A program made the position numbers and the translations under genes. From IMG/VR virus record IMGVR_UViG_3300045988_117710: a stretch of DNA of 64,000 bases. One strand, given 5' to 3'. Below are positions 4,069-46,691 of this stretch, piece after piece (position 1 is the stretch's first letter; every line of letters starts with the position of its first letter). The notes under the pieces are model-generated. The model worked only from the letters and a program-made list of their open reading frames with translations, was not told the DNA's origin and did no database searches. This DNA comes from a virus.

Positions 4069-7000
4069 ATGGCAATTTATAAGTCAAATATTTTACAAGC
4101 CACTGGTGCTGAAAGAATAACTGTTGCTGATGTAGATAGTGTTTATCTTGAACCTGGTTTACATTTCTTACCTGAAGTCTATACTGTAGTTATAGATGGT
4201 TTGAATAAAGATGTAGCTGTTGAGGGTTCTTCAAAGTTCACTTATGATGCTTGGGCAGTTATTTGTACTAATTCAAACAAAGCCGAACGTGGTGGTTATA
4301 CATCTTCAAGAATTCAGATTTGGATTCCAGTAGGTAATCGTGATAATAGCTCTCCTTACTATTTATCTGATACTAAGAACTATTTCTTTATAAGAATGAG
4401 AAATGGTGATTTACCTGGTGATGGTTGGGGTAGTTTTAGATTATTTGCTAGTGGTGAATCAGTTTCCTATGTAGGTACTGAAGAAGGTTTCTATTTAGTA
4501 GATAATAAAGACTTTAGATATCCTGTTATCCAATCTGATAATAGTAAGGCAGATAAAGTTTCTACTATTGTGGAAACAACTTTTGGTGGTACTAAGTACA
4601 AAGCTGGTGAGATTATACCTACAAGTTCTAAGTTTATTAATGCTCAGATTTTAGGTGTAGATGCTTCTGGTACTCCTACTAGAGTTGCTTTAACTAATAA
4701 GAATGTAACTGCAACTGAAGGTTCTGGTTGTACTATTACTATTGATATGCCAGATTTTAGTTTTATATCTGGTGCTAATTATTCAAAGAATGACATTATT
4801 CCTACAAGTGATGTTAATATAAATGCTAAGGTTTTAGCTGTTGATGAGTTTGGTACTCCTACAGAGTTAGTTCTTACAGAGTCACCAACTACTGCTACTA
4901 ATGGTTCTGGTTGTACAGTAACTATTAATAATTCAATTGTTGAAGTAGATAGATTTGGAAATCTTCGTGAGTCTAAACTTAAAGCATCTTTGATTGATTC
5001 TTACACATTTACTTATCAAGATTCTTATGTGTATGAACTTAATTTCGATGAATCTTATGATGAGTCTGAATTAGCTGCGGCTGGTTCTGATTATGGTTTT
5101 GGTTATACACCATTCTCATTTGAGAATTTTAATTATTCCTTAATTGATAAGTATACTGGTAAGGCAATTGAGAATGCTGAAGTTTCATTTAATACTTCTA
5201 AAGGTCCTTACATTCCTGCAGTTAATCCTGGTTCATTAATTTGGTATGGATTTGTTGATGTTAATGGTAAGGTTACTACAGAAGATGGTACAGGTTATAA
5301 GAATGGAGATAAGTTTACATTTGTTGTAGATGGTAATACTTATAATGGTACTGTTACTGATGCTTCTGCTCATCCTATTAAGATTTCTCATAATATTCCA
5401 TCAGGTCCTAGTGGAGCTCTTTGGAGTTTATCTGAAGGTGCTTATAGTACAACTAATACGAGTGGTACTGGTAAAGGTTTAAGAGTAATTATAACTCATT
5501 CAATTCCTGCACCTAATTATACAATTGATCCTAATCATGAGAATCCTGATATTCCAGATAAATGTTTAGTTTGGTCTGGGGTTAAGGCAATTACTAACGA
5601 GTCTATGACTAAGGTTGGTGTAATATTTATACCATTTACTATTTCATTTGACCAAACAATTAATGGTCAAATAACTCATATAGAAGAACATGGAACTGTT
5701 ACTGTTGTAGGTCTTTATGGTACTAAACCATATTGGATAGCTTCTAACTTTAATACAGTTTCATATAATACAACTTCTGCTGAGGGATGGGAAGTTGGTG
5801 ATGCATTTACAATTAATGTTTTAGGTGTTAAGTATCGTGGTCAAATTCTAGATACAACTACAGATCCTTATAACATTATTACTGATATTCCTCAAAGTTC
5901 TGACAAGAATATGACAGGACAATATATTGCAGTTTCTGATCCTGAAGATGCTGATAAGAAGAACCTAGTAGTTAATATTAACTCTGTTAACTCTCATACT
6001 TATAAGTTAGGTAATTCTTATGTTGATCCTCATGGTGGTTACGATCCTGCATTCTATTCTAACTCTCAAGTTGATATTCTATGTAATCAATTGAAGTTAC
6101 CAAATGGTACTGATTGGAATATTGTTGCTTATTCTGGAATTCATGATAATAGAGAGTTCAAAGAATTAGCAAGAACAACTACTATTAGTAATGATGCTAC
6201 TAAACGTTCTGATTATAAGATTCCAACTGAAGCTGCAATTGGTGATTGGGTAGAATCAAAGCTTGATAGTGATGTTGTTAAGAGTTTAGTTGCTGATTGG
6301 ACAGCAAGTGGTGAACAAATTCATTTAGTATTAAGTTCTGGTAAGGATGCTTCAGTTGTTACTGTTCCTTATGCAAGTTCAACTCAAGATGGTTTAATCA
6401 AGAAAGAGATGTATGACCAAATCAATCTTGACCATACTACTTTAGAGTCATTAAAAGGTTTAGATTCAATTGCTGCTAACTTAGGTAAGAAGAGTGAAAT
6501 TACACAAGCGAAGATGAATCAAGCTTGGGCTGCAGCTGGTAAGGGAAATCCTGTTGAAGGTAATAAGATTATCAATACATCTGAAGGTGATAACCAAGGT
6601 CACAACTGGATGTACTTAAATATGGGTGGAGTTGTTCAATGGTATGACATTGGTTCTGGTAATGTTGCAATTGCTACTAACTCAATGCAAGGTGTTGTAA
6701 TGGGAACTCCTCCAGATACTGAATATGATTACTTATCTGAAGTTGTTAAGCAAACTGGTTCAGCAGTTAACTTTATTAATGAAACTTTAACTACTTCATT
6801 AGCTGGTGCAACTGATTTTGAAGTTGTAGTTGACAATACAGATTCTGAAGGTAATATTACTGCTTATACTCTTAAGTATAAAAATGCAACTCCTCCTAGA
6901 GGTGTTCAAGAATTTATGCTTAGTGGTGTTTCATTTAAGAAGAATCATACAACTCCATTGTATTATACAAATGTTATAGTTTATGATTCGTCTGCTGCAA

Positions 7001-8259
7001 GTGGTTATGTTAATAAGGAATCATTTAAGATTAATGGTATTACTGGTGATTATAATGGTTATGTTATTAACTCATTTGTAAATCCACTTGAATGTATTTC
7101 TAATATTCCTGTTAAGACACCAACTAATATATCTGGTACTTATACAACTACTTCTACAAATGGTACTGGTGCTGGATTAAAGGTTGTTGTAGTATCTACT
7201 CCTTACTATGAAAGTGTAGATTTAAGATTAAATATTACTTCTTGGACTTTACCAAGTAATACAGTACAAATTGCTGATGCTGAAGGTCGTATGACTGTTC
7301 AAGGTGTTGCTACCTTAGCAGACCAAGTTACTTTCTTAAGAGAGAATAAAGCTGATAAAAAAGAGATTACAGTTACAAGTTCAGATTCTTCTATAGTTAT
7401 TACTAAGCCAGAAGGATTTGAAGATGATCCTAAATTTGATTTGAAGTTCAATTTATCTGGTTCAACTCAATGGGTTACATTGACAGGATTAATTGATGGT
7501 TTAACTTCTTCTTGGGATTTAACTAATTACTTCTCTGGTTTATCTACTAATAATACTGAATTCTATTACGGTGATGGTATTTTAATACCTGGTATTGACT
7601 ATACATTTGTAAGTTCAGTTCTAATTAATCAAGGTGGTGCTGGATATAAAGTTGGTGAAGTTGTAATGCTTGATAATGATTCATTACGTTCTGCCAAGGT
7701 TTTAGCTGTAGGTGCTGCTGGTCAAATTACTGATGCTGAAGTTACTACTGCATTACCTACTCCTACTGATGGTACTGGTGCTCAGTTATCTGCTCAATTC
7801 ATATTTACAAGTTTAAAAGAACCTTATATGAATTCTGCTAACAATAGAACATTTATGGCGAAAGCTGTTAAGTTATCATTGATTTCTGAATTATCTGGTG
7901 TGTCTGCTGTAGTAGACCCTACGAATACTATTAACTGTGGTGTTCAAGATAATACAGCAACAATTGGTTTAAATGTTCAAGCTGTGCTTAGAGCAAATAG
8001 TTCTCAACCATGTTATATTAACTTAGCTACTCCAACTCCTTCACCAAATATTGTTACTCAAGGTTCTATTGTTGGATTGTTACAACAGTTAACTAATAAT
8101 GTGGATTATATAATGAAGAATGCTGTATGGAAGTATAATACAAATGCAAATAAGATTGAAATTGCAATCCAAGATGCACCTGTTACTCCTAAAGCAAATA
8201 CTGATATCTTGAAGATTAGACCATCTGATTTAGGTCAAGATGCTAATCCATTAGGATAG
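4069..8259 (+). CDS. large virion structural protein (1396 aa) with internal domain repeats
   Basis: AAGGAGAGG RBS. Tandem ~60-aa repeats (IIPTS..GTPT..L(T/V)..TATxGSGCT(I/V)TI). Recurring GTGxGL(K/R)VV and GxGYKVG(E/D) modules. Confidence 0.55.
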   Translation: MAIYKSNILQATGAERITVADVDSVYLEPGLHFLPEVYTVVIDGLNKDVAVEGSSKFTYDAWAVICTNSNKAERGGYTSSRIQIWIPVGNRDNSSPYYLSDTKNYFFIRMRNGDLPGDGWGSFRLFASGESVSYVGTEEGFYLVDNKDFRYPVIQSDNSKADKVSTIVETTFGGTKYKAGEIIPTSSKFINAQILGVDASGTPTRVALTNKNVTATEGSGCTITIDMPDFSFISGANYSKNDIIPTSDVNINAKVLAVDEFGTPTELVLTESPTTATNGSGCTVTINNSIVEVDRFGNLRESKLKASLIDSYTFTYQDSYVYELNFDESYDESELAAAGSDYGFGYTPFSFENFNYSLIDKYTGKAIENAEVSFNTSKGPYIPAVNPGSLIWYGFVDVNGKVTTEDGTGYKNGDKFTFVVDGNTYNGTVTDASAHPIKISHNIPSGPSGALWSLSEGAYSTTNTSGTGKGLRVIITHSIPAPNYTIDPNHENPDIPDKCLVWSGVKAITNESMTKVGVIFIPFTISFDQTINGQITHIEEHGTVTVVGLYGTKPYWIASNFNTVSYNTTSAEGWEVGDAFTINVLGVKYRGQILDTTTDPYNIITDIPQSSDKNMTGQYIAVSDPEDADKKNLVVNINSVNSHTYKLGNSYVDPHGGYDPAFYSNSQVDILCNQLKLPNGTDWNIVAYSGIHDNREFKELARTTTISNDATKRSDYKIPTEAAIGDWVESKLDSDVVKSLVADWTASGEQIHLVLSSGKDASVVTVPYASSTQDGLIKKEMYDQINLDHTTLESLKGLDSIAANLGKKSEITQAKMNQAWAAAGKGNPVEGNKIINTSEGDNQGHNWMYLNMGGVVQWYDIGSGNVAIATNSMQGVVMGTPPDTEYDYLSEVVKQTGSAVNFINETLTTSLAGATDFEVVVDNTDSEGNITAYTLKYKNATPPRGVQEFMLSGVSFKKNHTTPLYYTNVIVYDSSAASGYVNKESFKINGITGDYNGYVINSFVNPLECISNIPVKTPTNISGTYTTTSTNGTGAGLKVVVVSTPYYESVDLRLNITSWTLPSNTVQIADAEGRMTVQGVATLADQVTFLRENKADKKEITVTSSDSSIVITKPEGFEDDPKFDLKFNLSGSTQWVTLTGLIDGLTSSWDLTNYFSGLSTNNTEFYYGDGILIPGIDYTFVSSVLINQGGAGYKVGEVVMLDNDSLRSAKVLAVGAAGQITDAEVTTALPTPTDGTGAQLSAQFIFTSLKEPYMNSANNRTFMAKAVKLSLISELSGVSAVVDPTNTINCGVQDNTATIGLNVQAVLRANSSQPCYINLATPTPSPNIVTQGSIVGLLQQLTNNVDYIMKNAVWKYNTNANKIEIAIQDAPVTPKANTDILKIRPSDLGQDANPLG

Positions 8260-8265
8260 GTTATT

Positions 8266-8296
8266 AAGAACAAGTGAAAGCTTGTTCTTTTCTTTT
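8266..8296 (+). terminator. intrinsic terminator
   Basis: 9-bp stem AAGAACAAG/CTTGTTCTT followed by a T-tract. Confidence 0.7.
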
Positions 8297-8305
8297 TCGT
8301 ATAAT
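8291..8305 (+). promoter_or_regulatory. promoter P1, TTTTTCGTATAAT type
   Basis: TCTTTTTCGTATAAT sits on the terminator U-tract. -10 at 8300-8305. Confidence 0.5.
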
Positions 8306-8350
8306 ATTACTAGAGTTATTAATTATCGATGACCACTTCAAAAGGTTTTG

Positions 8351-8382: not shown

Positions 8383-9552
8383 ATGTCAGTGACAAAAGCA
8401 AAGTGTATTGGTTATTTAGGTACGAAGACAGGGATTGCGGATCCTATTTTTGCAACATTGGTTCAGAGAGAACAAGATTTAGAGAGTAAGAACTTCTATG
8501 ATTTGTTTGGTGGTGGAGGAAGTATGTCGTCTTTCTTTGCTGAAGCTGGTTGGAATGTTCTTTACAATGAGTTCAATAACAATATTAAGTCTTTATTTGA
8601 GTATGTTGTGTTAGATAAGTTACCTGATTCTTTTTGGACAAAGCCAGAGTGGGTTTCTAGAGAGAAGTTTAAGGATGTTGTAACTAATCAAAGCAAATAT
8701 GATCCTTGGTTTGTAGGTTATTGTCAAGCTTGTTGGTCTTTCTCTGGTACTCAAGATTCTTATATGTATGGTGATTTATATGAAGAGTATAAGAAATTAG
8801 TTCACGATTGTTATGTGTATTGGGAGAATGGTGAACCACAACAGGAAGCTGTAGATGCCTATAATAGACTTAAAGAAGTTATAGCTGGTCTTACTTTCTT
8901 TGGAGAGTCTTTACCATTTGAATCTGATTTACCTTTATTTAGAATGACTAGTTTAACTGAGATTAAGAATTGGGCAAATCAATCTCTTAAGGTTATGGTT
9001 GATATTTGGAATAGACATAATCCAGATAATAAATTTAAGACAGCACAAGAGTTGAATGCTTATCTTAAGAAGAATGCTAAGGGTTCACCAGAAGCACAAG
9101 ATTTCAATGTCCTATATACTTTTGTTCAATCTTTTGGTAGATTGGAGTGGAATTCGAAGTTAGTTTCTTTAGAACCTTTGAGAGGTATGACTAAGAATAC
9201 AACAGGTCAAATTACGTTCAAATGGGGCTCATATGATGAGGTTGATATTCCTGATGGTTCTTTGGTTTATTGTGACCCACCATATGCTAAAACGGCTTCT
9301 TATGCGTCTAATAGTGAGGGTGGATTTGACCATGGTAAGTTCTGGCAATGGGTTCGTGAGAAGTCTAAAACTTGTTCAGTTTATGTTTCTGAAGAGACTG
9401 CTCCAGATGATTTCTATTCTGTATTAGATATTCCTTTAGCAAGAGGTTTAGGTTCTGGTAAAGGTGATGGTACTAAGAAGATTGCCATTGAGAAGTTATT
9501 TGTTCATGAGTCAAAACTCACTGAAAAGGATAGACAAGATTTAGGTTTATAG
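8383..9552 (+). CDS. dam: Dam-family N6-adenine DNA methyltransferase
   Basis: Motif I FGGGGS near the N-terminus and motif IV LVYCDPPYA. These are collinear with E. coli Dam (VEPFVGAGS ... VVYCDPPYAP). RBS GTGAGGTG. Confidence 0.8.
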   Translation: MSVTKAKCIGYLGTKTGIADPIFATLVQREQDLESKNFYDLFGGGGSMSSFFAEAGWNVLYNEFNNNIKSLFEYVVLDKLPDSFWTKPEWVSREKFKDVVTNQSKYDPWFVGYCQACWSFSGTQDSYMYGDLYEEYKKLVHDCYVYWENGEPQQEAVDAYNRLKEVIAGLTFFGESLPFESDLPLFRMTSLTEIKNWANQSLKVMVDIWNRHNPDNKFKTAQELNAYLKKNAKGSPEAQDFNVLYTFVQSFGRLEWNSKLVSLEPLRGMTKNTTGQITFKWGSYDEVDIPDGSLVYCDPPYAKTASYASNSEGGFDHGKFWQWVREKSKTCSVYVSEETAPDDFYSVLDIPLARGLGSGKGDGTKKIAIEKLFVHESKLTEKDRQDLGL

Positions 9553-11367: not shown

Positions 11368-12018
11368 ATGAGTACTTATATCACACCAGAGTTTCCTAAT
11401 GTAATTAAGACACAAGTTATTACATTGAAATCTAGACAAAGAAGAATGGTAGATTTCTATAATTTACCTGGTAGTTTCTATATGGCTTTTGGTAAGCAAA
11501 CTCCATGGAAGTCTGATACTGATCCTAATGTTAGTGATACTAATCCACCAGTACCAGATCCTAATCAACAATATATAAGTGAGTTGATTGGTCTTTGGAG
11601 AATTCAATGGAAGATGTATGCTAAGCCATTAATTAATCCAACTACTGAAGAGAAGAATAATCATATCAAGCCAATTTATAGTGGTGAGCAAATAATTGGT
11701 TATACAGATGGTGTTGAGGAATACAAGGGTGTTTACTATGCTTGTACATTGAATCAAGAGAAGGCACTTAATGAAGGTTATACTTGTGTAATGCTTTATG
11801 CTTATCTTGATAGAGATGATGTGTTCCCTGCAAATGTTACTTTCAGACAAACTGGTTTATATGTTCAATCTACAAAGACAGATTTATATATTCCTGCTAG
11901 TTCTTGGAATAACTATTCTGAAGATGATAAAGGTTATTTAGAGCTTATTTGTAATTGGAGACCTTATACTAGAAGTTCTGAAACAAGCGAAGAGTTCTTT
12001 TCGTTATTCTCATTTTGA
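11368..12018 (+). CDS. hypothetical protein
   Basis: AAGAGGAGAG RBS, 216 aa. Confidence 0.6.
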   Translation: MSTYITPEFPNVIKTQVITLKSRQRRMVDFYNLPGSFYMAFGKQTPWKSDTDPNVSDTNPPVPDPNQQYISELIGLWRIQWKMYAKPLINPTTEEKNNHIKPIYSGEQIIGYTDGVEEYKGVYYACTLNQEKALNEGYTCVMLYAYLDRDDVFPANVTFRQTGLYVQSTKTDLYIPASSWNNYSEDDKGYLELICNWRPYTRSSETSEEFFSLFSF

Positions 12019-12078
12019 TTATACTGGAAAGTATACTCTTTTTACTTTCTAAATTATATATTAATTTAGGAGGTTGTT

Positions 12079-12963
12079 ATGGGAGTGAAAGGAAGAAAGA
12101 TTTTACCAAAGTTAACATTAGAATTACTTAAAGAAGAGAGACCAGATATTGAAATACTAGGAGAATATATTAATAACTATACTAAACTTAAAGTCAGATG
12201 TAGTTGTGGAAACATTTATGAAGCAGCACCATCAACATTAAGGAAAGGCCATAAATGTATGAAGTGCTCTGGTAATAATAAGATAACATTAGATATTGTT
12301 CAAAAAGAACGACCAGATTTATTTATTGTTGAAGTTGTTAATGCCTATAATATTTATTATTTGTGTCCGACTTGTGGTACTAAATGTAAAACTTCATATT
12401 CTTGGTTAACTAATAAAGATGTTTCAAAGAGAACTAAAGGTTGTATTAAATGTCATACTTCAAGACTAGCAAAGTCTAAATTTTCTACTAAAGAGGAGCT
12501 TCAGAAGAAGTGTCCTGATATTGAGATATTAGGAGAGTATGTCGATTCCTATACACCAATTGAGTATAGATGTAGGTGTGGAGAAATTCATAAATCAAAG
12601 CCACAACATTTAACTCAAGGTAAGAGATGTGGACATTGTAAGAGGTATACAGGAGAAGAGGTTATTAAGGATTTTCTTAATAGTAATAGTATTTCTTACA
12701 TTAAACAGTATAGGTTTAAAGATTGTAGAGATAAATTACCTCTACCATTCGATTTCTACTTACCTGACTATAATATGTGTATAGAGTATGATGGACTTCA
12801 GCATTTTGAACAGAGGAAAGGTTGGACAGACTTAAGTGAAGTTCAGTTACATGATTCTATTAAGACAAATTATTGTAAGAGTAACAATATTACTTTATTG
12901 AGGATTTCTTATAGGCAATTAAGTGAAATACAAGATATATTAACAGAAACGTTCAAAAGTTGA
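12079..12963 (+). CDS. homing-endonuclease-like protein: three tandem zinc-ribbon repeats plus a C-terminal PD-(D/E)xK (Vsr/DUF559-like) nuclease domain
   Basis: Three ~65-aa repeats with CxCG...CxxC. C-terminus PLPFDFYLPDYNMCIEYDGLQHF matches the Vsr-like nuclease core. AGGAGG RBS. Confidence 0.5.
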   Translation: MGVKGRKILPKLTLELLKEERPDIEILGEYINNYTKLKVRCSCGNIYEAAPSTLRKGHKCMKCSGNNKITLDIVQKERPDLFIVEVVNAYNIYYLCPTCGTKCKTSYSWLTNKDVSKRTKGCIKCHTSRLAKSKFSTKEELQKKCPDIEILGEYVDSYTPIEYRCRCGEIHKSKPQHLTQGKRCGHCKRYTGEEVIKDFLNSNSISYIKQYRFKDCRDKLPLPFDFYLPDYNMCIEYDGLQHFEQRKGWTDLSEVQLHDSIKTNYCKSNNITLLRISYRQLSEIQDILTETFKS

Positions 12964-14673: not shown

Positions 14674-17600
14674 ATGGCTTCTTATTATAGTAGTGATTCT
14701 TCTGTTAATTTAAAGAATTTTGGAAAGAAGGCCTATTTACAAGCCGATGTATCTTATTCACGTTCTGGTACTACTGGTTATAATGTAACAGTAGCAGTTT
14801 ATCTTAAAACACGTTCTACAAGTACTTCTTGTCCATTCTATTCTTATAGTTGTTATCAATATTGCTCTATTAATGGAGTAGAAAAACGTAATACAAGTAG
14901 TAGTAATCCAAGTTCAAGTTGGAGAGCTCGTGATGGAGTTCATTTGTGGTCTAGTACTCAATTTGTAGATCCGGGTGGACCTGCATATAGTTGTCCTTTT
15001 AGTGTTACTTATCGTGTTCCTTCTGGTACATATACTTTTAGTAGTCAACAAACTTTTTCTATTAGTAATTCAATAACTCTACCAGCTACTTGGGTTGCAC
15101 CAACTCAAACTTTCTTAACTTCAGCTACAAATACTACAACTAATAATACAAGTTCTAGTAGTAGAAGTTTTACTGATAATACCCACGCTTCTGGTAATAC
15201 TAGTTATGTAGGTGATTCTTTTAGTTATACTTGGGATAAGAATGACCAAGCAAATGTAGGTTCAAATGCTAATCCAGGTTCTTATGCTTATTTAGCTAGA
15301 AGTTCTTCTAATACGTCTGGTTCTGTTAATAATCACCCATCTACTGGTACAGATATTCATACTGCATGGGGATGGACTCATGGTGGAGATGATTTATATG
15401 TAGGTGGTTATACTTATACTGCAGTTCCTGCTGATGGTGGTAATTACTTATTAGCTTGTATGTATAAATATTATGCAGATTCTAATGGTAATGCATGTCA
15501 TTTTCATCAAGCAAATGGTCATTATATTCAAGCTATACCAACAATTTCTGCTACATATACTGTTAGGTCTAGAAAGCTTTATAGAAGTTCACCATCAACT
15601 GTAGTAGTTCAGTTATCTGCTATTTCTATTACAACTAATGGTTATAGGATTCATAGACGTAATAGTGATATGGGTATAGTTGAGTTTCATACTTGTACTG
15701 CTAATGGTTTCGCTTCAGCTACTAGAGGTTCTGCCGATAATGGTCAAACTTCAAATTATTCAATGTCAGGTAGAACATATCAACTTGTTTGGAAGAATGC
15801 TGCAGCAAGTAATGTTAGTGCTGGTACTTATACATCTGGAGTTTATTCTAGATATCAAAGTCCTAACTTAACAGCGGCATATACAACTGGACATGATTTA
15901 TATACTGTTTCTAATGCTTTAACTGTTGTTGATGGTTCTTTCTCAAAGATTGCTGCAAAGAACTTTAAGATAACTAATCCATCAAGTCAATATCCAACTT
16001 CTGCTTCAACTATGAATTTCTTATTAGGTTGGGAGTATAATGGTACACATAACAATGTTCGTGGTGATTATAGAATTGAACGTTCAACTGATGGTTCTAC
16101 TTGGGGTGTTGGTGGTATATCTGGTGGTACTGTTTATAAGGATTGGAGAGGATGGACAGTAGATACTGATTTATCTTCTACTGGATGGAGAATTGACCAA
16201 TCTGGCACTACTTATGTTTATGCTGATGTTCCTTTATCAACAACTGGATATTACTATAGGATTTCTTTAATCCCATCTAGTACAGATTCAGCAGGATATC
16301 AAATCTTCGGTGATCCTATTTATTTAGTTTCTGATAAGATTTATCGTGTTATTATTCCTGCAGTACCTAAGGTTAATTATTTAACAAGTATTTTACCTCC
16401 TATTGTTGGTATTGCTAATGATTTCTATTATAAATATCAGAATACATCTAATTGGGGTAACTTCTCACCTAATACTGATTTTGGACATATTAGAAGACAA
16501 TACTATGATGGTTCACATTATGAAGATTTAACAGATACTTCTAATATTACTGCTAGTGGTTATGTAGAAGGTGTATATTCAAAAACTGTTCCGAGTACTT
16601 CTACTGGTTCACTTTCTTTAAGAGTTAAGTCGTCTGTTAAGACAACTAATTGGAGTGATACAGAGTTTACTTCAGCACAATCTAATTATAAGTCTTTAGC
16701 ATTGATTGCTCAGAAGAAGTATTCTATTACAGCTTCTGATGTTGCAATTTCAACTCCATTAGCAACTACTTTATTAAGAAATATTCCATTTACTTTATCT
16801 TTACCTCGTAAAACTATTAATGGTAACTATTTAATTAATTCTGGTAGTATTTATGTAGATGGTACTAAGTCATCTGACTTTAATGATTTATCATATACAC
16901 TTGGTGATGTAGCTGGTTGGGGAACAACTTTTGTAGGTGGTAATACTACTTTAGGTTCTGATGGTGTTTGTACTTCTATATCTGGTGATAGGTCTATTTC
17001 ATTTGCTAATAAGAGTTGGTCTACAGATACTTTAACTAGAGGTGTTCATACTATTAAGGTAGATGTTGAAATTCTTACTTACTTTGATTCTGATGGTGTT
17101 AGAACTATTAATGGTACAAATTACAATTTACCTACTAACCATGTTCTATTTGGTTCTACTGGTGTGTTATCTTCTAATACATTAACTGTTGAGATTGGAG
17201 ATATTCCAGCTGCACCAACTATTAATATTCCAAATCCTCAATTCTTTAATGCAGGTCAAGAAAGAAAGTTAACTTGGACTTTCTCACCTAATGATTGGGG
17301 TGTTAATGATACAACTTATAATAATAGACATTATGATTATGAGTTATATAATCCAGCAGGTACTAAGATTCAATCAGGTACTATTGCTAAAGGAACTACT
17401 TCTCATACATATACATTTACTCCAAGTAATGCTGATTTAGGTTCTTATAAGTTTAGATTACGTCAAGTTAATGTTCTTGGTGTTTCTAATTGGGTTGAGT
17501 CTGAAATAGAAATTCAAAAGGCAATTGAGCCAACTACTTCTACTTTCTCAACTTCTGAAGTAATTGCCTTAGCTGATTGGGATTATTCATTATCAATTAA

Positions 17601-18804
17601 ACCTGGTAATAATGGTTCTTATAAACCAGTAACTACTGCTCCTATTGCTAGATATAAGATTGATGTTGTTCAGTTACCTAAGAACTTATATAATCCATCA
17701 TTTGCAGTATTTGATTCTAATTATATTACTGATGTAGGAAGTGGTTGGTATCATTTAGCTGCTGATAGAACAAGTGCAACTGGTGTAGATTATGCTGATT
17801 TCTGGACAAATTGGAATCAATATTTGAAAGCCAATACAGATTATACTTATGTACTTGAAGTTAGAAATGCTAGTGTTAATAGAAGTTTAATATTTGAATT
17901 AGGAGATACTGCTGCTCCTTCAGCTCAATTCTCTACAAACTTTGAGTTGATTGGTGATTCTGCTGATGAACTTAATGGAACACATTTCTTCTATGTTAAG
18001 ACTAAAGCTGATATGAAATCAACTTTATATAATAAGCATTGTGGTAGAGACTTTGTAACTTTACCTGCAGGATGTAATTATAGTTTAGATTTCAGAATCT
18101 CTATTATTGAAGGACATATTCCTGAAGATGAGTTCACTTATTCTGCTTATAAGAATCCTTATATAACAAATCTTACAGCTTGGACGAATGTAGGTAATGG
18201 TGCAAACATTTCTAGAAACTTAACTCATAACTTAAGTAATTATATTGATGGTTCTTATAGTCTTTATATTCCTTATGAGAGATACTATACAACATTCACT
18301 TCTAAAGAATCTCTTATTACTCAGATTATTCCACCTGAGATTCAAATTACTGATGCTAGTACTATTGAATGGGTTGGTACTGATAAGGCAGAGTTTAACT
18401 TTAAGATGTTTGTAGATATCTTTGGATGGTGTGGAACATGGAATGCTAATGAAAATCCACATACTGGTGGATGTTGGGCTGAGTATTCATTAGATTATGG
18501 TAAGACTTGGACAAGAGCTTATGATAATAAAGCGGATAGAGTTATTGAGATTCCACTTACTTGGTTAGATGAGATTTGGCTTCGTGGTTATGGTGCTAAT
18601 CCTGTTGATACTGATGATAAGTTTACTGTTGGTACAGATTCTAATGGTGATCCTATTAAGGTTGAGATTGTTAAGCATGATATGTATTCTTGTTATAAAG
18701 CATGGTTAGCTGAGAATGGTGGTGCTGAGGATTGGACAAGAAAGATTCATTTATCTCATAACAATACGAAAGAGAAGAAAATTCGCAAGATAACTAAGGA
18801 ATAA
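14674..18804 (+). CDS. large S/T/Y/G-rich virion protein, putative tail fibre or receptor-binding protein
   Basis: AGGAGG RBS with ATG at 14674; the track start at 14668 is a GTG. Length 1376 aa. Confidence 0.5.
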   Translation: MASYYSSDSSVNLKNFGKKAYLQADVSYSRSGTTGYNVTVAVYLKTRSTSTSCPFYSYSCYQYCSINGVEKRNTSSSNPSSSWRARDGVHLWSSTQFVDPGGPAYSCPFSVTYRVPSGTYTFSSQQTFSISNSITLPATWVAPTQTFLTSATNTTTNNTSSSSRSFTDNTHASGNTSYVGDSFSYTWDKNDQANVGSNANPGSYAYLARSSSNTSGSVNNHPSTGTDIHTAWGWTHGGDDLYVGGYTYTAVPADGGNYLLACMYKYYADSNGNACHFHQANGHYIQAIPTISATYTVRSRKLYRSSPSTVVVQLSAISITTNGYRIHRRNSDMGIVEFHTCTANGFASATRGSADNGQTSNYSMSGRTYQLVWKNAAASNVSAGTYTSGVYSRYQSPNLTAAYTTGHDLYTVSNALTVVDGSFSKIAAKNFKITNPSSQYPTSASTMNFLLGWEYNGTHNNVRGDYRIERSTDGSTWGVGGISGGTVYKDWRGWTVDTDLSSTGWRIDQSGTTYVYADVPLSTTGYYYRISLIPSSTDSAGYQIFGDPIYLVSDKIYRVIIPAVPKVNYLTSILPPIVGIANDFYYKYQNTSNWGNFSPNTDFGHIRRQYYDGSHYEDLTDTSNITASGYVEGVYSKTVPSTSTGSLSLRVKSSVKTTNWSDTEFTSAQSNYKSLALIAQKKYSITASDVAISTPLATTLLRNIPFTLSLPRKTINGNYLINSGSIYVDGTKSSDFNDLSYTLGDVAGWGTTFVGGNTTLGSDGVCTSISGDRSISFANKSWSTDTLTRGVHTIKVDVEILTYFDSDGVRTINGTNYNLPTNHVLFGSTGVLSSNTLTVEIGDIPAAPTINIPNPQFFNAGQERKLTWTFSPNDWGVNDTTYNNRHYDYELYNPAGTKIQSGTIAKGTTSHTYTFTPSNADLGSYKFRLRQVNVLGVSNWVESEIEIQKAIEPTTSTFSTSEVIALADWDYSLSIKPGNNGSYKPVTTAPIARYKIDVVQLPKNLYNPSFAVFDSNYITDVGSGWYHLAADRTSATGVDYADFWTNWNQYLKANTDYTYVLEVRNASVNRSLIFELGDTAAPSAQFSTNFELIGDSADELNGTHFFYVKTKADMKSTLYNKHCGRDFVTLPAGCNYSLDFRISIIEGHIPEDEFTYSAYKNPYITNLTAWTNVGNGANISRNLTHNLSNYIDGSYSLYIPYERYYTTFTSKESLITQIIPPEIQITDASTIEWVGTDKAEFNFKMFVDIFGWCGTWNANENPHTGGCWAEYSLDYGKTWTRAYDNKADRVIEIPLTWLDEIWLRGYGANPVDTDDKFTVGTDSNGDPIKVEIVKHDMYSCYKAWLAENGGAEDWTRKIHLSHNNTKEKKIRKITKE

Positions 18805-18930: not shown

Positions 18931-19293
18931 GTGAGTAGTTTCGATACAGATAAGATGTATACAGAGTTGAATAGACTTTTAGATACCTATTCATTTTCTG
19001 AATTGATGTGGTTGTTTAGAAATATTACTTATGACCAAATTAAATACTTTTCTGAAGATAGTAAGGGAGTTATTTATGATGGTTCTTATTCTAGGGAAGT
19101 AATAGAACAGGCAACTGATTTTCAACGTAAGATTTCGACTTATGCAGATCTTATGAATCAATCTATTTCAAATCATAGAGAGTTTGATAGGGATTATTTA
19201 AAGCAATATGAGTATGCTGGACCTTATCTTAATATTATCGAGAGTTTGAAAGAGAGAATCAATTTTTTGGAAGGTGTTGAGGAAGATGACTAG
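18931..19293 (+). CDS. hypothetical protein
   Basis: GTG start after a GAGAGGTGA RBS, downstream of the promoter at 18905-18910. First gene of a three-gene operon. Confidence 0.45.
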   Translation: MSSFDTDKMYTELNRLLDTYSFSELMWLFRNITYDQIKYFSEDSKGVIYDGSYSREVIEQATDFQRKISTYADLMNQSISNHREFDRDYLKQYEYAGPYLNIIESLKERINFLEGVEEDD

Positions 19294-20488
19294 TGTGGCA
19301 AAGAGTTATCAGTTTACTTTAACTGATAAGTATGTTTCAAGTTGGGGTTATTTAGAAGGTATTCGTGAGTTATTACAGAATGCCTATGATTATGGTAATT
19401 ATGATATTTCTTTTGGTTCTGATTCTATTGTTATTAAGAATTATAATGATAAGATTCAAATTAAAACTTTGTTGATGGGTTATGGGACAAAGACCAATGA
19501 TAAGAATTCTATTGGTGGATTTGGTGAAGGTTTTGTTTTAGCTCTATTGGTTCTATTAAGACAAGGATTTCAAGTTCATATAGAGAATGCTGATGAAGTA
19601 TGGATTCCTTATTTCCAAGAGAGTGAAGAGTTTAATAATGAGAGATTATTCCATATCAATGTTTTAGAGAGTGAAAGTCCAACTGATGATTTGTCTATTA
19701 TTGTAAGTGGTTTTAGTCCTGAACAATTGAATTCTATTCAAGATGAGTTCTTAGGTTTACAAGGAGATTATTCTTCTATTAAGACTTTATATGGTGAAAT
19801 TCTTACTGATCCTAATCAGAAAGGTAAGATGTATGTTGAAGGTTTACCTATTACTACTGATAGAGATTTTGAGTATGGATATAACTTTAAAGCAGAGTAT
19901 GTTATCCTAGATAGAGATAGGAAAGATATTAATCATAAGGAACTTAAGAAGATTACTTCTATGGCAATTGTTCATATGGAGGAAGATAATTTTGATTTTG
20001 TAGATAGTATTGTTGATTCTGGTAAGGAAGATATTTATGCTTTTAATCATAAGGAGATAGAGCTTCCTAAAACTTTTGTTGATAAGTATTCAGACCATTT
20101 AAAGAAGAAGTTTAGTGTTGCTGATACATCAGTTGTTGTTAATAAAACTGATGAGAAGGTTATTAAGGAACTTGAGGATATGGGTGAAGAAGTTGTTACT
20201 GTTGATAGGAAGATTTATGCAGATATTATTAATGAGACTTCTGAATATTCTTATGATAAATATCAACAAGCATCTAAAACTGTTAGTAGTAGAAGTAAGG
20301 TAGATGATGCTTGGATTTATTTTAGAAATAGTACTTATAGTGATTTGTTAGATTGGTTAAAGAAATATGAGTCATTGCTTTCTGAAGAAGCAATTGAAGA
20401 GTATAAGAGTATTATGGAATATAATGAACCTTATTTATTTGAGTTAATTCGTGATGAGGTTTTAGGTGATTCTGATGGGGCGAAATAG
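19286..20488 (+). CDS. GHKL-family (Bergerat-fold) ATPase
   Basis: N-box ELLQNAYDYG and G2-box GGFGEGF. ATG at 19286 after GGAAGGTG; the track start at 19274 is a GTG. Confidence 0.5.
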   Translation: MTSVAKSYQFTLTDKYVSSWGYLEGIRELLQNAYDYGNYDISFGSDSIVIKNYNDKIQIKTLLMGYGTKTNDKNSIGGFGEGFVLALLVLLRQGFQVHIENADEVWIPYFQESEEFNNERLFHINVLESESPTDDLSIIVSGFSPEQLNSIQDEFLGLQGDYSSIKTLYGEILTDPNQKGKMYVEGLPITTDRDFEYGYNFKAEYVILDRDRKDINHKELKKITSMAIVHMEEDNFDFVDSIVDSGKEDIYAFNHKEIELPKTFVDKYSDHLKKKFSVADTSVVVNKTDEKVIKELEDMGEEVVTVDRKIYADIINETSEYSYDKYQQASKTVSSRSKVDDAWIYFRNSTYSDLLDWLKKYESLLSEEAIEEYKSIMEYNEPYLFELIRDEVLGDSDGAK

Positions 20489-21155
20489 GTTCCCAATTGG
20501 GCTTAAATTTCATCATTTAACGGTTATTGAGTATTTGGGTTCACAGGGTGATAAGAATCGTCACACTCGATATAAATGCCTTTGTGATTGTGGTAAAGAG
20601 GTTATCATTCTTTCTCAACATATTGGTAAGCAGAAGAGTTGTGGGTGTGTTCCTCGAAACAATCATAGATACAAATCGTATAATGTTTCAAAGGAGGATA
20701 GTATGAAATTAGTTCGTGAAGCTGCTTTTGAAACAAATTCAAGTAGTACTCATAGTATTACTATGTGTTCTGGATCTGTTTTCGATGATTGGAAGGATGG
20801 TAAGTTAGTTTTTCTTGAAGATGAGGACAAGTTCTTTGTTAAGGGTAGTCGTGAGTTAAGAGATTGGTATGCTAGGTGTGTTTTACGTTATAAGTGTACT
20901 TATGATTGGGATACTAAATTGTATTCAGATGGATCTGCAACTTATACTGAAGATGAGCTTTTCTGCCAAGAGAGATTAGATTCTGTTTCTGAAGAAGATA
21001 TTTCAGAGTATAGAGAAGATGATTGGTATGCATGTCCACTTTCTTACAGTGAGTGGGTTGACTATCGTGGTGAAGGTTATGAGTTATATGAAGAACGTAA
21101 TACCTTTGATGGTGCAGATGTTGTAGCATTTGGTTACTATGGAAATGATTATTAA
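20466..21155 (+). CDS. zinc-ribbon protein fused to, or co-encoding, a member of the FETNSSS-N-terminus family
   Basis: N-terminal half has CxCxCG...CGC. An internal AAAGGAGGA RBS followed by an ATG at 20704 begins MKLVREAAFETNSSSTHS, matching paralogues at 58520-60046. Confidence 0.5.
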   Translation: MILMGRNRFPIGLKFHHLTVIEYLGSQGDKNRHTRYKCLCDCGKEVIILSQHIGKQKSCGCVPRNNHRYKSYNVSKEDSMKLVREAAFETNSSSTHSITMCSGSVFDDWKDGKLVFLEDEDKFFVKGSRELRDWYARCVLRYKCTYDWDTKLYSDGSATYTEDELFCQERLDSVSEEDISEYREDDWYACPLSYSEWVDYRGEGYELYEERNTFDGADVVAFGYYGNDY

Positions 21156-21167
21156 TTTGTTTAATTA

Positions 21168-21200
21168 AAGTCAACAATATTGTTGACTTTTTCTTTTGTT
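21168..21200 (+). terminator. intrinsic terminator overlapping a downstream -35
   Basis: 9-bp stem AAGTCAACA/TGTTGACTT plus a T-tract. Confidence 0.7.
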
Positions 21201-21211
21201 TATCGTATAAT
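21183..21211 (+). promoter_or_regulatory. consensus sigma-A-type promoter TTGACT-N17-TATAAT for the PARP-like gene
   Basis: -35 at 21183-21188 lies in the 3' arm of the terminator hairpin. -10 at 21206-21211, preceded by CG. Confidence 0.65.
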
Positions 21212-21236
21212 AGAGACAATGAAAGAGGTAATGTTT

Positions 21237-22496
21237 ATGAAATTTGCAAAGTTAATTATGATTACTGAAGACAATCACAATAAAGAGTATATAATGACTC
21301 AGATTGATTCTTCAACATTTAAAGCTGAATGGGGTAGGGTTGGTTCTAGTTATCAATCAACTACTTATTCTATGTATGAGTGGGATAGTAAGTACAAATC
21401 TAAAGTTAAGAAAGGTTATAAGGATATATCAAATCTAGTTGAGAAGGTTACTGTAGATGGTGATGTTAAGACTTTACCTTATGACTATATTACTAATAAG
21501 TCTGTCAAGGATATTCTTAATAGATTGTATCAATATACTGATTCTTACTTAAAGGAAAACTACTTAGTTAATACTGTAGATGTTTCCAAAGCACAAATTG
21601 ATGAAGCTTATAAGATTATTGATGAGCTTGAAAGATTAGCTTATTCAAGACATTTAGATGTTCGTGAAGTTAATAGAAATTTAATTAAGTTATTTGAAAC
21701 AATTCCAAGACGTATGTCTAGAGTTAAAGATTATTTATGTGATGATTCTATTACTAAAGATAAGGTTGATGAAAAGATTCGTGCTGAGTTAGATATGCTT
21801 AAGACTATGTCAGATGCTGTTGAGTTAAGACTTAAGAAACAAGCTGCAAGTAAGAAGACTACTAAGGTTGAGAAGTTATCTGAATCTGAACAAAAGGATA
21901 AATTACTTGCTGATCTTGGATTAGTTGTAGAGGATGTAACTGATGAGGATATTAAGTTTATTAAGAAACAATTAGGTGAAAGTTCACACTTATTTAAGAA
22001 AGCTTGGAAGATTACTAATCCTGCTACTGAAAAGAGATTTAATGATTTAGTTGCTACTGATGATTTCAAAGGTAAGGAAGTTAAATATTATTGGCATGGT
22101 TCTAGAAATCAAAACTGGTATAATATTATTCAAACAGGATTAACTGCTAATCCTAAGGGTGTTAAGATTACTGGTAAGATGTTTGGTTATGGTATCTATT
22201 TTGCACCTAAAGCAAAGAAGAGTGTTAACTATACTTCTCTTGAAGGTTCTTATTGGGCAAGTGGTAATGATAAGAGTGGGTTCATGGCTTTATTCGAAGT
22301 TGCTATGGGTAATGTGTTAGATGTTTATGATCATCATTACTGGTGTTCAAGAACTAACAAAGAAGAGATGTGGAAACATAACAAGTGTCATACTTTATAT
22401 GCTCACGAAGGTAGAGGTTTCTTATACAATGATGAAGTTATTGCATATGATGATGCACAAGTTAATATTAAATATATAGTGGAGTTGAGTAGATAA
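21237..22496 (+). CDS. PARP-like ADP-ribosyltransferase (WGR domain plus PARP catalytic domain)
   Basis: WGRVGS motif near the N-terminus. C-terminus YWHGSRNQNW..TGKMFGYGIYFAPKAKKSVNY...LYNDEVIAYDDAQVNIKYIVEL is near-collinear with the PARP1 catalytic signature including the H-Y-E residues. Real ATG at 21237 (AAAGAGG RBS); the track ORF runs upstream through the promoter. Confidence 0.75.
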   Translation: MKFAKLIMITEDNHNKEYIMTQIDSSTFKAEWGRVGSSYQSTTYSMYEWDSKYKSKVKKGYKDISNLVEKVTVDGDVKTLPYDYITNKSVKDILNRLYQYTDSYLKENYLVNTVDVSKAQIDEAYKIIDELERLAYSRHLDVREVNRNLIKLFETIPRRMSRVKDYLCDDSITKDKVDEKIRAELDMLKTMSDAVELRLKKQAASKKTTKVEKLSESEQKDKLLADLGLVVEDVTDEDIKFIKKQLGESSHLFKKAWKITNPATEKRFNDLVATDDFKGKEVKYYWHGSRNQNWYNIIQTGLTANPKGVKITGKMFGYGIYFAPKAKKSVNYTSLEGSYWASGNDKSGFMALFEVAMGNVLDVYDHHYWCSRTNKEEMWKHNKCHTLYAHEGRGFLYNDEVIAYDDAQVNIKYIVELSR

Positions 22497-22598
22497 TGAA
22501 GAGAGATAAAGCTCTTTAAGTTTGATTAATTTATATATTATTTTAGGTGGTTTTAATTCTTTTTCCCACCTGACTTTCTTTTTCTTATTTTTTCCATT

Positions 22599-22624
22599 GG
22601 GTGGGGTTATCCCACTCTTTTTCG
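22599..22624 (+). terminator. intrinsic terminator
   Basis: GTGGG/CCCAC stem plus TCTTTTT. An additional AGGTGG/CCACCT hairpin lies at 22545-22571. Confidence 0.5.
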
Positions 22625-22630
22625 TATAAT
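22614..22630 (+). promoter_or_regulatory. promoter, CTCTTTTTCGTATAAT
   Basis: -10 at 22625-22630. Confidence 0.5.
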
Positions 22631-22647
22631 ATAGTAGGAGTGATTTT

Positions 22648-22929
22648 ATGATTTGTTCTAATTGTAAGAAGGACACAGCTCTGATGAATAAGGATTTATG
22701 TTTCGATTGTTTTCTTGCAAGTCAGGGAGAGTTTTCTAATAAGTTGTTTTGTCCTAGTTGTTTGAAAGAGACTACTTGTGTATTTGAGTATTCTGTTCAA
22801 GGGTTTCAGCATCGTAAGATTCATGAAGTATCTGGTGTGGTATATAAGGATTTTGATATCTTTGAAGATTACTATACTTGTCTTGAGTGTGACAAGCAGT
22901 TCACAGTTGTTAGGGAAGAAGAGAGATAG
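22648..22929 (+). CDS. zinc-ribbon protein
   Basis: Four CxxC pairs. RBS GTAGGAGTGA. Confidence 0.55.
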   Translation: MICSNCKKDTALMNKDLCFDCFLASQGEFSNKLFCPSCLKETTCVFEYSVQGFQHRKIHEVSGVVYKDFDIFEDYYTCLECDKQFTVVREEER

Positions 22930-44258: not shown

Positions 44259-44466
44259 GAAGTTGTTTTGTAGACATCAATGGAGAGCTGTTCAGAAGAG
44301 AACTTCCAATCATTGTGATGATTATATTTACTTTTCAGATTTAGGGTTTTGGGATGATATCAAATATAAATGTGAGAAGTGTGGCAAGGAAAAGATTAAG
44401 ACTGTGGCAAATAGCAAACATCCTCTGTTACATGAATGGGAGGATTTAAATGACAAAGATAGATAA
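44245..44466 (+). CDS. zinc-ribbon protein
   Basis: GAGGTAGGTGG RBS, ATG at 44245. Confidence 0.45.
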   Translation: MSWIKKLFCRHQWRAVQKRTSNHCDDYIYFSDLGFWDDIKYKCEKCGKEKIKTVANSKHPLLHEWEDLNDKDR

Positions 44467-45010
44467 AGAGCTTTATAAGATTTATGATGAAGCTTGGAGA
44501 GTTTTAGATGATTATAAGGAAGAGCTGTTGAAGTATAATGATACTTCTAGCTTGAAGAAGGCAATGTATAATATTGATTCAGTTGTTGTTAATAGGAGAT
44601 GTAATTCTAGGAGAGGTTGTTGTAAGCATTTAGATGGTAATACTGTTAAGGTTGAGCTTTCTGGTTATATGTTATCTTTACCAGAGAAGGAAGCAGTTAC
44701 TACAATGGTTCATGAGCTTCTACATTGTTTTAGAGATTCACGTGGTCATAGAGGTCAATGGTTATGGAGAGCCAATTTGCTTAAGAGTAGAACTGGGTTG
44801 AATATTACTAGGGTGAGAACCATTGAGAATGAGTATGAGTTGAGAAAAGATTATTATGAACAACGAGCTAGGAATCAAAGAGAATATAATATAGTTTGTA
44901 GATGTAAGAATTGTGGTTATGAGATTCGTAGAAGTAGGGAGACACAATTCACGAAGCATCCAGAGTTTTATAAGCATCCACAGTGTGGTGGAACTTTTGA
45001 AAGGGTTTAG
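44450..45010 (+). CDS. SprT-like zinc metalloprotease domain protein with a C-terminal zinc ribbon
   Basis: HELLHCF (HExxH) motif and C-terminal CRCKNCGY..C. Confidence 0.5.
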   Translation: MTKIDKELYKIYDEAWRVLDDYKEELLKYNDTSSLKKAMYNIDSVVVNRRCNSRRGCCKHLDGNTVKVELSGYMLSLPEKEAVTTMVHELLHCFRDSRGHRGQWLWRANLLKSRTGLNITRVRTIENEYELRKDYYEQRARNQREYNIVCRCKNCGYEIRRSRETQFTKHPEFYKHPQCGGTFERV

Positions 45011-45448: not shown

Positions 45449-45458
45449 GGTGGTTTTT

Positions 45459-46634: not shown

Positions 46635-46651
46635 TAGTTGACTTCTTTTTT
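46623..46651 (+). terminator. intrinsic terminator overlapping a downstream -35
   Basis: GAAGTCA/TGACTTC stem plus TTTTTT. Confidence 0.6.
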
Positions 46652-46666: not shown

Positions 46667-46691
46667 AGAGACAATGAAAGAGGTGAATGTT

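Follow-up and report, generated by a model that had tools for sequence, protein, structure and literature searches.

A Three-Domain PARP1/2/3-Type ADP-Ribosyltransferase in a Gut Phage and Its Candidate Macrodomain Eraser

Introduction

What would a poly(ADP-ribose) polymerase (PARP) of the human PARP1/2/3 type be doing in a phage? The question is raised by a gene on the plus strand of the IMG/VR viral record IMGVR_UViG_3300045988_117710, analyzed here as a stretch of 64,000 nucleotides (the window). An earlier note on this DNA had read the gene as coding for a PARP1-like enzyme that contains a WGR domain and has its H-Y-E triad intact; the open reading frame at 21237-22496 (plus strand) and all four peptide strings that it quoted are present. 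The annotation is well supported and unsurprising. Among prokaryotic and phage PARPs, two enzymes, both bacterial, have been assayed. In the interpretation that we hold with moderate confidence, the gene encodes a minimal PARP1/2/3-type ADP-ribosyltransferase that would be activated by nucleic-acid ends, reversed by a macrodomain, and used in phage DNA metabolism or conflict. What the present analysis adds is a conserved macrodomain-PARP operon in the replication and repair modules of gut phages, together with a rearranged, twin-promoter version in the clade of the window.

Results

Domain Architecture and Active Site of the Phage PARP

Sequence comparisons and a structural model confirm for the predicted protein a three-domain architecture of the PARP1/2/3 type, composed of WGR, predicted helical, and catalytic domains, with the H-Y-E triad intact (Table 1). 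The ATG start of the gene is preceded by AAAGAGG at a spacing of 8 nt. The Pfam catalytic domain PF00644 matches residues 255-418 (E = 1.3e-21; score 77.5 bits, cutoff 26.7), and PHROG 23333 ("polymerase") covers residues 12-417 (E = 9.8e-49); no NCBIfam model matched the protein. A phmmer search against PDB sequences retrieved human PARP1 at about 1e-15. These alignments are collinear from the helical domain into the ADP-ribosyltransferase (ART) domain, with the match to the PARP1 helical domain running from residue 116, and for constructs that contain the WGR domain they begin at residue 35.

A large protein database holds 1,784 homologues of this PARP at E <= 0.001, 69 of which were aligned (alignment A1) and used for the conservation counts and the structural model. 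In a Pfam scan the catalytic domain is recognized in 69 of the 69, the WGR domain in 50 (best E = 3.8e-8), and the regulatory domain PARP_reg in three. The family profile aligns with full-length PARP2 in a single collinear stretch from WGR to ART, starting at profile position 14 (E of about 8e-27), and with PARP1 catalytic-domain chains at E = 3.7e-27. The AlphaFold2 model built on A1 (mean predicted local distance difference test score, pLDDT, 83.4; predicted template-modeling score 0.68) consists of a four-strand sheet with a helix (residues 3-58), an all-helical domain (88-252), and the ART domain (253-418). Foldseek matches it over its full length to WGR-helical-ART chains of DNA-bound PARP1 (7s6h and 4dqy) and PARP2 (6x0l), with E of about 1e-20, template-modeling (TM) scores up to 0.70, and an identity of about 20%. 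The PARP1-like catalytic core of the earlier note is thus borne out, also by the superposition on PARP structures that it had proposed as a check.

The WGR motif itself is W32-G33-R34, and residues N15, K16, Y18, G33, R34, G36, K56, G60, Y61, and D63 of this domain are invariant in the aligned homologues. The presence of a WGR domain is accordingly accepted on transitive and structural grounds, despite a weak Pfam score of the window protein itself (see below). The predicted helical domain lies at the position of the autoinhibitory regulatory domain of PARPs and is backed by the model and by collinearity without being recognized by its Pfam model; the same situation was reported for the "Clade 1" bacterial PARPs by García-Saura et al. 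2018 (PMC5966428).

In the catalytic domain, H287, G288, S289, Y321, K328, S329, Y332, and E400 are invariant in A1, in agreement with the triad claimed earlier. The wider family conforms to this pattern: of the top 120 database matches, 119 contain HG[ST] and 116 have N[DN]E ahead of the last strand. In a single-sequence alignment the phage protein seems to be one residue longer around the catalytic Glu (YN-D-E, where PARP1 has YN-E). This is an artefact, since relatives read LINNEYIVY or LRNDEVIVY with the length unchanged and the profile alignment ("kmLrndEvivY") is gap-free; because of the latter, E400 is taken as the equivalent of PARP1 E988. With H, Y, and E all in place, the enzyme is predicted to be active.

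Table 1. Features of the PARP locus and of the twin-promoter operon in the window
Feature	Position	Strand	Remarks
PARP-family ADP-ribosyltransferase gene	21237-22496	+	419 amino acids; stop codon included in end
WGR domain, residues ~1-66	21237-21434	+	W32-G33-R34 present; structure, profile, Pfam in relatives
All-helical domain, residues ~88-252, at position of PARP autoinhibitory helical/regulatory domain (predicted)	21498-21992	+	Model, collinear alignment with PARP1 helical domain, Foldseek
ART catalytic domain	21993-22493	+	PF00644, conservation, profile alignment
Catalytic codons	H287 22095-22097; Y321 22197-22199; E400 22434-22436	+	
Hairpin and T-run, terminator-like for upstream gene	21167-21190	+	10 pairs, loop 4, then TTCTTTTGTT
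Sigma-70/sigma-A-type promoter, TTGACT-17 nt-TATAAT	21183-21211	+	11/12 matches, best in region
-10 element and 5' leader with ribosome-binding site (AAAGAGG, 21222-21228)	21206-21229	+	24 nt identical to 46661-46684
Intrinsic-terminator-like hairpin and T-run closing monocistronic PARP unit	22599-22617	+	Next CGTATAAT promoter directly after
CGTATAAT sites	8298, 8358, 18903, 20677, 21204, 22623, 28634, 29079, 30984, 42426, 46659, 60328, 61638, 63684	+	
Second, near-identical copy of PARP promoter and leader	46638-46691	+	TTGACT-17-TATAAT plus AGAGACAATGAAAGAGGT
First operon gene, 238 amino acids, restricted to this phage lineage	46692-47408	+	5 homologues only
ALC1-like (SCO6735/DarG/TARG1-class) macrodomain, 163 amino acids, candidate eraser	47879-48370	+	PDB, PHROG, NCBIfam
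First terminator-like hairpin after twin promoter, operon end	49219-49237	+	

Macrodomains and Replication Genes beside PARP in Related Phages

The genomic context of PARP was compared by clustering all open reading frames from 80 IMG/VR loci, two further loci (L002 and L005), and the window, 83 loci altogether. The commonest neighbor, found in 70 of the 83, is a protein of about 145 amino acids whose gene is on the same strand and typically stops about 10 nt short of the PARP start. This protein is a TARG1/OARD1-type macrodomain; for the copy in locus L012 the E values are 5e-25 with human TARG1, 1e-4 with Pfam Macro, and 2e-11 with the NCBIfam DarG macrodomain. The equivalent of the catalytic Lys84 of TARG1 is conserved in all 54 of the PARP-adjacent macrodomains, and that of Asp125 in 35 of 54. 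After dereplication into PARP clusters of 90% identity, the macrodomain is adjacent to PARP in 29 of 47 clusters and within 10 kb in 36 of 47, and among loci derived from genomes the pairing is seen in 13 of the 19 from Bacillota and gut sources. A search by regular expression only, run over the six frames of the window and of 86 loci, detected no PARG signature (GGG-X(5-9)-QEE).

Other recurrent neighbors are the DnaG primase, the DnaB helicase, PD-(D/E)XK and ERCC4 nucleases, an intein-containing C5 methylase, and an NrdD-like protein (assigned without a Pfam scan). An NAD-dependent DNA ligase with a BRCT domain accompanies PARP in 22 loci, at a median distance of 443 nt upstream. Two isolated phages repeat parts of this picture. 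In Cellulophaga phage phi4:1, genes for a DNA ligase and a DNA methylase are no farther than about 2 kb from the PARP gene gp031. In Klebsiella phage FBKp34, PARP (gp111) and a macrodomain annotated as "putative phosphatase" (gp105) share an annotated promoter-to-terminator unit, and this macrodomain is of the same subtype as that of the window (E = 3e-9 in a small search).

Details of two of these neighbors may be recorded here. The C5 cytosine DNA methylase (cluster 2) occurs in locus L022 at 15913-17862 and in 45 other loci, and the L022 copy, which was scanned, is interrupted by an intein (Hint/Intein_splicing). Some of the PARP-adjacent macrodomains carry N-terminal extensions, namely those of L009 (9207-9968), L025 and L030 (about 333 amino acids), and L061, L063, L064, and L066 (221-240 amino acids); the extension in L009 is a CxC...CxxC zinc ribbon similar to the N-terminus of the window gene 20466-21155.

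The Macrodomain of the Window

The earlier note had pointed to a candidate macrodomain downstream of PARP. A real macrodomain is encoded there, 26 kb away, and it is the sole one in the window. In a search with a hidden Markov model of the PARP-adjacent macrodomains it is the only open reading frame of the window that matches (E = 1.2e-3; hhalign E = 3.9e-5). It resembles SCO6735 (PDB 5e3b, E = 7.8e-6), with a Gln aligned to the catalytic Gln85 and a GGG loop reading "FGGGLAAQ". It also matches PHROG 335 (E = 1.3e-26), the NCBIfam DarG macrodomain (E = 8e-8), and Poa1p-type phosphatases; Pfam Macro gave no match at E <= 0.01. Catalytic roles have been assigned to a Lys in TARG1 and DarG and to a Gln in SCO6735, and the latter enzyme strips thymidine-linked ADP-ribose from DNA as well as Glu/Asp-linked ADP-ribose from proteins (PMC9411070).

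The gene belongs to a tightly packed operon that begins with the second PARP promoter copy and ends with the terminator at 49219. The operon encodes a 238-amino-acid protein, two small open reading frames, the macrodomain, a short open reading frame overlapping its neighbors (48321-48575), and a protein similar to the C-terminal domain (CTD) of RNA polymerase's alpha subunit. Around the macrodomain extends an RNA-repair-like cluster (45450-46634, 47879-48370, 48550-48978, and 49267-50934), whose further members are an Rnl1-type RNA ligase (PF09511, 4e-18), the alpha-CTD-like protein of 142 amino acids, and a metallophosphoesterase-RNA-ligase fusion of 555 amino acids (PHROG 968 and 547); the Rnl1-type ligase and the fusion flank the operon on its two sides.

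The first gene of the operon is considered a somewhat unlikely PARP partner. Its 238-amino-acid product has no match in Pfam, PHROG, NCBIfam, or PDB, and its AlphaFold2 model (pLDDT 58.6) is unusable. Of its homologues, one is encoded 4 kb downstream from PARP in L002, and another is in locus L169, where neither PARP nor a macrodomain occurs within 10 kb. The 256-amino-acid gene that follows PARP in L002, considered as a further homologue, was rejected (E = 12).

Promoters of the PARP Unit and of the Macrodomain Operon

PARP in the window forms a free-standing promoter-gene-terminator cassette. Its promoter, described earlier as a perfect sigma-A-type promoter, exists and is near-perfect, with 11 of 12 positions matching. 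The claimed duplication of the 5' leader at 46661 holds as well: 24 nt at 21206-21229 are identical to 46661-46684. This segment has two matches in the window against 0 expected and is embedded in a near-copy of about 54 nt, which is the only other site combining a consensus -35 element with the identical -10/leader segment.

Both promoters belong to a larger class composed of a T-rich tract, often right after a terminator hairpin, then CGTATAAT, a short leader, and a strong ribosome-binding site. The window contains 14 copies of CGTATAAT, all on the plus strand, against 0.9 expected. A consensus TTGACT -35 element is found at three members of the class (21183, 28613, and 46638), and the class precedes non-structural genes, for instance the helicase gene.

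Each of the twin promoters also overlaps a hairpin (21167-21190 and 46620-46648) whose 3' arm doubles as the -35 hexamer. The 5' arms differ, being AAAGTCAACAA at the PARP gene and GAAGTCA, with a 9-nt loop, at the operon. To judge from the sequence, these hairpins look like terminator-promoter composites that keep the pairing by means of different sequences.

Discussion

Proposed Mechanism

In the mechanism that we favor, the WGR domain would bind a break or end of DNA (or RNA), and the binding would lift the autoinhibition exerted by the helical domain, so that NAD+ could reach the H287/Y321/E400 site. ADP-ribose, in single units or short chains, would then be transferred to PARP itself, to nearby proteins on Asp/Glu, and/or to a nucleic-acid terminal phosphate, and an ALC1/TARG1-class macrodomain would take the mark off. 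Expressed from a promoter of the host RNA polymerase type, the enzyme would most likely act in transactions of phage or host DNA, that is, in replication, recombination, and the processing and protection of nicks and ends. The distant macrodomain of the window is the candidate eraser of the window PARP.

The H-Y-E triad is necessary yet insufficient for poly-ADP-ribose synthesis, and PARP3 is a mono-transferase. Our data lean towards a mark of single units or short chains, placed on proteins or on nucleic-acid ends in the course of DNA transactions, because the erasers are of the TARG1/DarG/SCO6735 class, no PARG signature was detected, and the relatives keep company with ligases, nucleases, and primases. 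Activation by DNA breaks or ends is suggested by the conserved WGR residues and by analogy with the WGR-PARPs of Herpetosiphon aurantiacus and Clostridioides difficile CD160, which are DNA-activated, make poly(ADP-ribose), and are blocked by PARP inhibitors in vitro (PMC8120803, PMC5966428). More generally, the tie of the main clade to a TARG1-type eraser among replication and repair genes points to DNA-end biology and away from host protein modification in the manner of T4.

A number of observations weigh against this interpretation. The hidden Markov model searches suggested in the earlier note were significant for PF00644, whereas on the single window sequence WGR (PF05406; E = 0.075, score 13.6 bits, cutoff 22) and PARP_reg (PF02877; E = 0.044) stayed below threshold; the claim of a WGR domain stands on the relatives, the profile, and the structure and not on the protein's own score. 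At 55% identity with single linkage, macrodomain adjacency is confined to one large clade of nine, and 59 of the 61 remaining genome loci, mostly Bacteroidota chromosomes, lack the pairing, so that a universal macrodomain-PARP operon is rejected. In the clade of the window, represented by the window, L007, and L002, the 6-10 kb around PARP are free of macrodomain genes, and the genes adjoining PARP are structural or small early-type genes and not the replication module; this clade has lost the adjacency that characterizes the main gut-phage clade. The shared promoter is in itself weak evidence of a coupling between PARP and the macrodomain, because 14 genes have a promoter of this class. The window macrodomain could also have another task, either RNA repair (with ADP-ribose-1''-phosphate as the substrate) or the removal of DarT-type DNA ADP-ribosylation; this is a live alternative because of its RNA ligase neighbors and its likeness to SCO6735 and DarG. 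Finally, we found in the literature no experimental study of any phage PARP and no experiment on the "Clade 1" PARPs (WGR and catalytic domains without a Pfam-recognizable regulatory domain), the bacterial enzymes tested being from another clade (PMC5966428).

Alternative Explanations

The proposal can be sharpened into a reversible ADP-ribosylation system for nucleic-acid ends, in which PARP would do the capping and the macrodomain the uncapping. Phosphorylated ends and nicks that injection, replication, or host attack leave in phage DNA (or RNA) would then be capped or flagged by PARP, the caps would shield the ends from host exonucleases or time their ligation, and the macrodomain would take the caps off so that the co-encoded ligases could act. 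In so specific a form we consider the idea unlikely; if true, the phage pair would be the viral equivalent of eukaryotic PARP1-3/TARG1 break signaling, and possibly the origin from which that signaling evolved, and it would be spread over hundreds of gut-phage lineages. The earlier note had thought instead of host take-over in the manner of T4 Alt, ModA, and ModB or of countering NAD-based defences, and neither role is supported by the context, since the relatives display replication and repair genes and a TARG1-type macrodomain. As a take-over enzyme, PARP would ADP-ribosylate proteins of the host (RNA polymerase or translation factors, for example) at an early stage of infection so as to redirect the cell, with the WGR domain only tethering it to DNA or activating it there. 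The strong host-type promoter of PARP would fit, as would the small early-type genes near PARP in the window clade (YodL, a faint ArdA-like gene, and Endonuclease VII) and the alpha-CTD-like protein of the twin-promoter operon. Yet the H-Y-E triad and the predicted sensor and autoinhibitory domains place the enzyme in the PARP1-3 type and not in the R-S-E Alt/Mod type, it is neither fused to nor encoded with head-packaged MuF-type modules, and most relatives keep a dedicated eraser, which a one-way host-shutoff modifier would not need. We therefore hold host take-over to be improbable.

Little probability is also given to a counter-defence role, in which PARP would mark or block host nucleases or defence proteins at phage DNA ends (restriction, RecBCD/AddAB, CRISPR) and the macrodomain would serve separately against DarT or other ADP-ribosylation-based defences and not as the eraser of PARP. 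DarT is a known anti-phage toxin, and the closest relatives of the window macrodomain, SCO6735 and DarG, remove the thymidine-linked ADP-ribose that DarT makes on DNA. The PARP cassette is mobile within its clade and lies beside an indel hot spot, as is often the case with accessory counter-defence genes, and in L002 it is followed by the faint ArdA-like gene. On the other hand, no homology to defence or anti-defence proteins was found for PARP, the occurrence of a tight macrodomain-PARP operon across dozens of lineages argues for a single mark common to writer and eraser, and consumption of NAD+ would harm a phage that itself uses NAD-dependent ligases. Hardly credible, in our view, is a protein that lacks catalysis or serves only as an NAD-binding scaffold, or else a gene of bacterial origin brought in by mis-assembly of the contig. 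The sub-threshold WGR and PARP_reg scores and the label "MAG TPA: hypothetical protein [Caudoviricetes sp.]" given in NCBI nr to a PARP of the same cluster could be read in that way (JGI names another member "poly [ADP-ribose] polymerase"). However, all catalytic and NAD-site residues are invariant in the homologues, the window encodes a major head protein, tail-fiber-like proteins, and a helicase with all its substantial open reading frames on the plus strand, members of the same 90%-identity cluster sit on contigs of 179-189 kb from many human-gut samples and bear the label Caudoviricetes, and among 150 relatives in species-representative genomes none exceeds 60% identity.

Comparison with Known Systems

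The closest counterparts of the window PARP are the "Clade 1" bacterial PARPs of Cytophagales and Clostridiales (PMC5966428) and the phage "PARTs" (phi4:1 gp031, FBKp34 gp111, and XacN1). They share a length of about 400 amino acids, the order of a WGR domain, a helical domain usually missed by Pfam, and an H-Y-E catalytic domain, and WGR motifs of the Y/W-G-R-V-G and NNNKYY types, with 27-43% identity over the full length. Compared with the main gut-phage clade, the clade of the window has no adjacent TARG1-type macrodomain and carries PARP as a free-standing cassette at varying positions. The best functional precedent is provided by the H. aurantiacus and C. difficile enzymes mentioned above, which have the WGR domain and the H-Y-E triad in common with the phage PARP but belong to another bacterial clade, contain a canonical Pfam PARP_reg domain, and are accompanied by DUF2263 PARG erasers. 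The macrodomains that accompany the phage family, in contrast, are of the TARG1/DarG type, which takes off terminal or nucleic-acid-linked ADP-ribose and does not degrade poly(ADP-ribose) chains.

Human PARP2 and PARP3 and the WGR-helical-ART part of PARP1 have the same domain order and fold. The triad, the equivalents of K903, S904, and Y907, the WGR motif, and a helical segment (IPRxM against IPHDF) are all found in the phage protein, whereas zinc fingers, BRCT, and the N-terminal tail are absent, N398 and D399 replace Y986 and N987 of PARP1, and there is no HPF1 or PARG partner, the candidate partner being a TARG1/DarG-class macrodomain. The DarT/DarG and TARG1 systems employ the same class of eraser as the PARP-adjacent and window macrodomains. 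They differ in the writer, which in the phages is a WGR-PARP and not a DarT-family ART, and evidence of toxin-antitoxin behavior is lacking. The T4 Alt, ModA, and ModB proteins are likewise phage-encoded NAD+-dependent ADP-ribosyltransferases; they belong to the R-S-E clade, have no sensor or autoinhibitory domains, and in the case of Alt are packaged in the head. No sequence relationship between them and the window PARP was detected.

Distribution and Origin

The architecture had been called rare in phages, which is true of isolated ones. Relatives of the window PARP were found by tblastn in 15 of 50,697 deposited phage records, most of them already annotated as PARP; among the carriers are Cellulophaga phages phi4:1 and phi17:2, Klebsiella phage FBKp34, Xanthomonas phage XacN1, and two uncultured huge phages. 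In metagenomic phages, by contrast, PARPs are common: at least 291 viral contigs in IMG/VR encode a confirmed full-length relative, and the 80 loci that were fetched match over nearly the full length. The best structural match in BFVD, with 37% identity and a TM score of 0.84, is annotated in UniProt as "NAD(+) ADP-ribosyltransferase [Bacteriophage sp.]". Phage PARPs have in fact been reported since 2014, when Perina et al. listed four viral PARPs, that of phi4:1 among them (PMC4245714); later Iyer et al. pointed out that jumbo phages contain PARPs (PMC7824862) and counted "PART (PARP)" among the viral ART families of highest frequency (PMC9503650). The WGR-helical-ART enzyme is thus a common and strongly conserved accessory of large gut phages, and FBKp34 (gp111 with gp105) and phi4:1 (gp031 near a DNA ligase) offer tractable models.

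The bacterial relatives come from Clostridia, Lachnospiraceae, Ruminococcus, and Oscillospiraceae (37-43% identity) and from Saprospiraceae, Cytophagales, and Spirosomataceae (34-40%). Since bacterial and phage homologues are 34-43% identical to the window PARP and human PARP1 and PARP2 only about 20%, sequence identity assigns this PARP to a prokaryotic and phage lineage without a recent capture from eukaryotes. One record deserves a comment. Locus L090 (JBBACR010000001.1, 425,361 bp), deposited as "Candidatus Pacearchaeota archaeon", agrees in size and in its PARP with the viral contig L015 (IMGVR_UViG_3300035208_004923), and probably represents a huge phage that was wrongly binned as archaeal.

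The Host Phage and the Genes Flanking PARP

The window has a G+C content of 32%, and a megablast comparison with deposited phages revealed none near-identical to it. A Bacillota host is suggested by the strong Shine-Dalgarno sites and the TTGACx/TATAAT promoters; tRNA genes, sought in the window as a further clue to the host, were not found. The clade of the window comprises its PARP and relatives of 67-86% identity on gut-phage contigs of 180-197 kb, and is 37-44% identical to the remaining PARPs.

Within this clade PARP occupies three different genomic positions. In the window it follows the structural block; in L007 it sits among homologues of the window genes from 55-62 kb; in L002 it comes after a YodL-like gene, and homologues of two genes of the twin-promoter operon are located 3-4 kb downstream. 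A near-identical phage, L001 (ENA ERZ24773290 NODE_84), has a PARP open reading frame 99.5% identical to that of the window and, at 4260-5963 (corresponding to 22496-22648 of the window), three extra genes of 327, 127, and 77 amino acids that have no family match and are absent from the window. The insertion lies exactly at the PARP stop codon, which overlaps the next ATG, and thus marks an indel hot spot directly 3' of PARP. Given the three positions and this insertion, the PARP cassette is evidently mobile and located in a variable region.

The gene upstream of PARP (20466-21155, 229 amino acids) belongs to a multi-copy paralogue family with the motifs "ETNSSSTHS" and "VVAFGYxGNDY". Copies are found in the window at 20466-21155, 58520-58996, and 58993-59610, and in L007 at 4951-5520, 7863-8342, 8406-8771, and 11743-12225. 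The copy upstream of PARP has an additional N-terminal CxC...CGC zinc ribbon resembling modules associated with HNH endonucleases (PHROG 374, 1e-15). A degenerate macrodomain was considered for this gene and rejected (hhalign probability 0.1); it was also rejected as a PARP-specific partner or a homing endonuclease, the C-terminal module being that of the multi-copy family and the L007 copy lacking the HNH-like zinc ribbon. Farther upstream, 19274-20488 encodes a 404-amino-acid protein of PHROG 6077 with a sacsin-like HATPase match at its N-terminus (NCBIfam, 3.5e-5). Elsewhere in the window, 44450-45010 encodes a protein of the SprT-like metalloprotease type (PF10263, 4.7e-5, just under the threshold).

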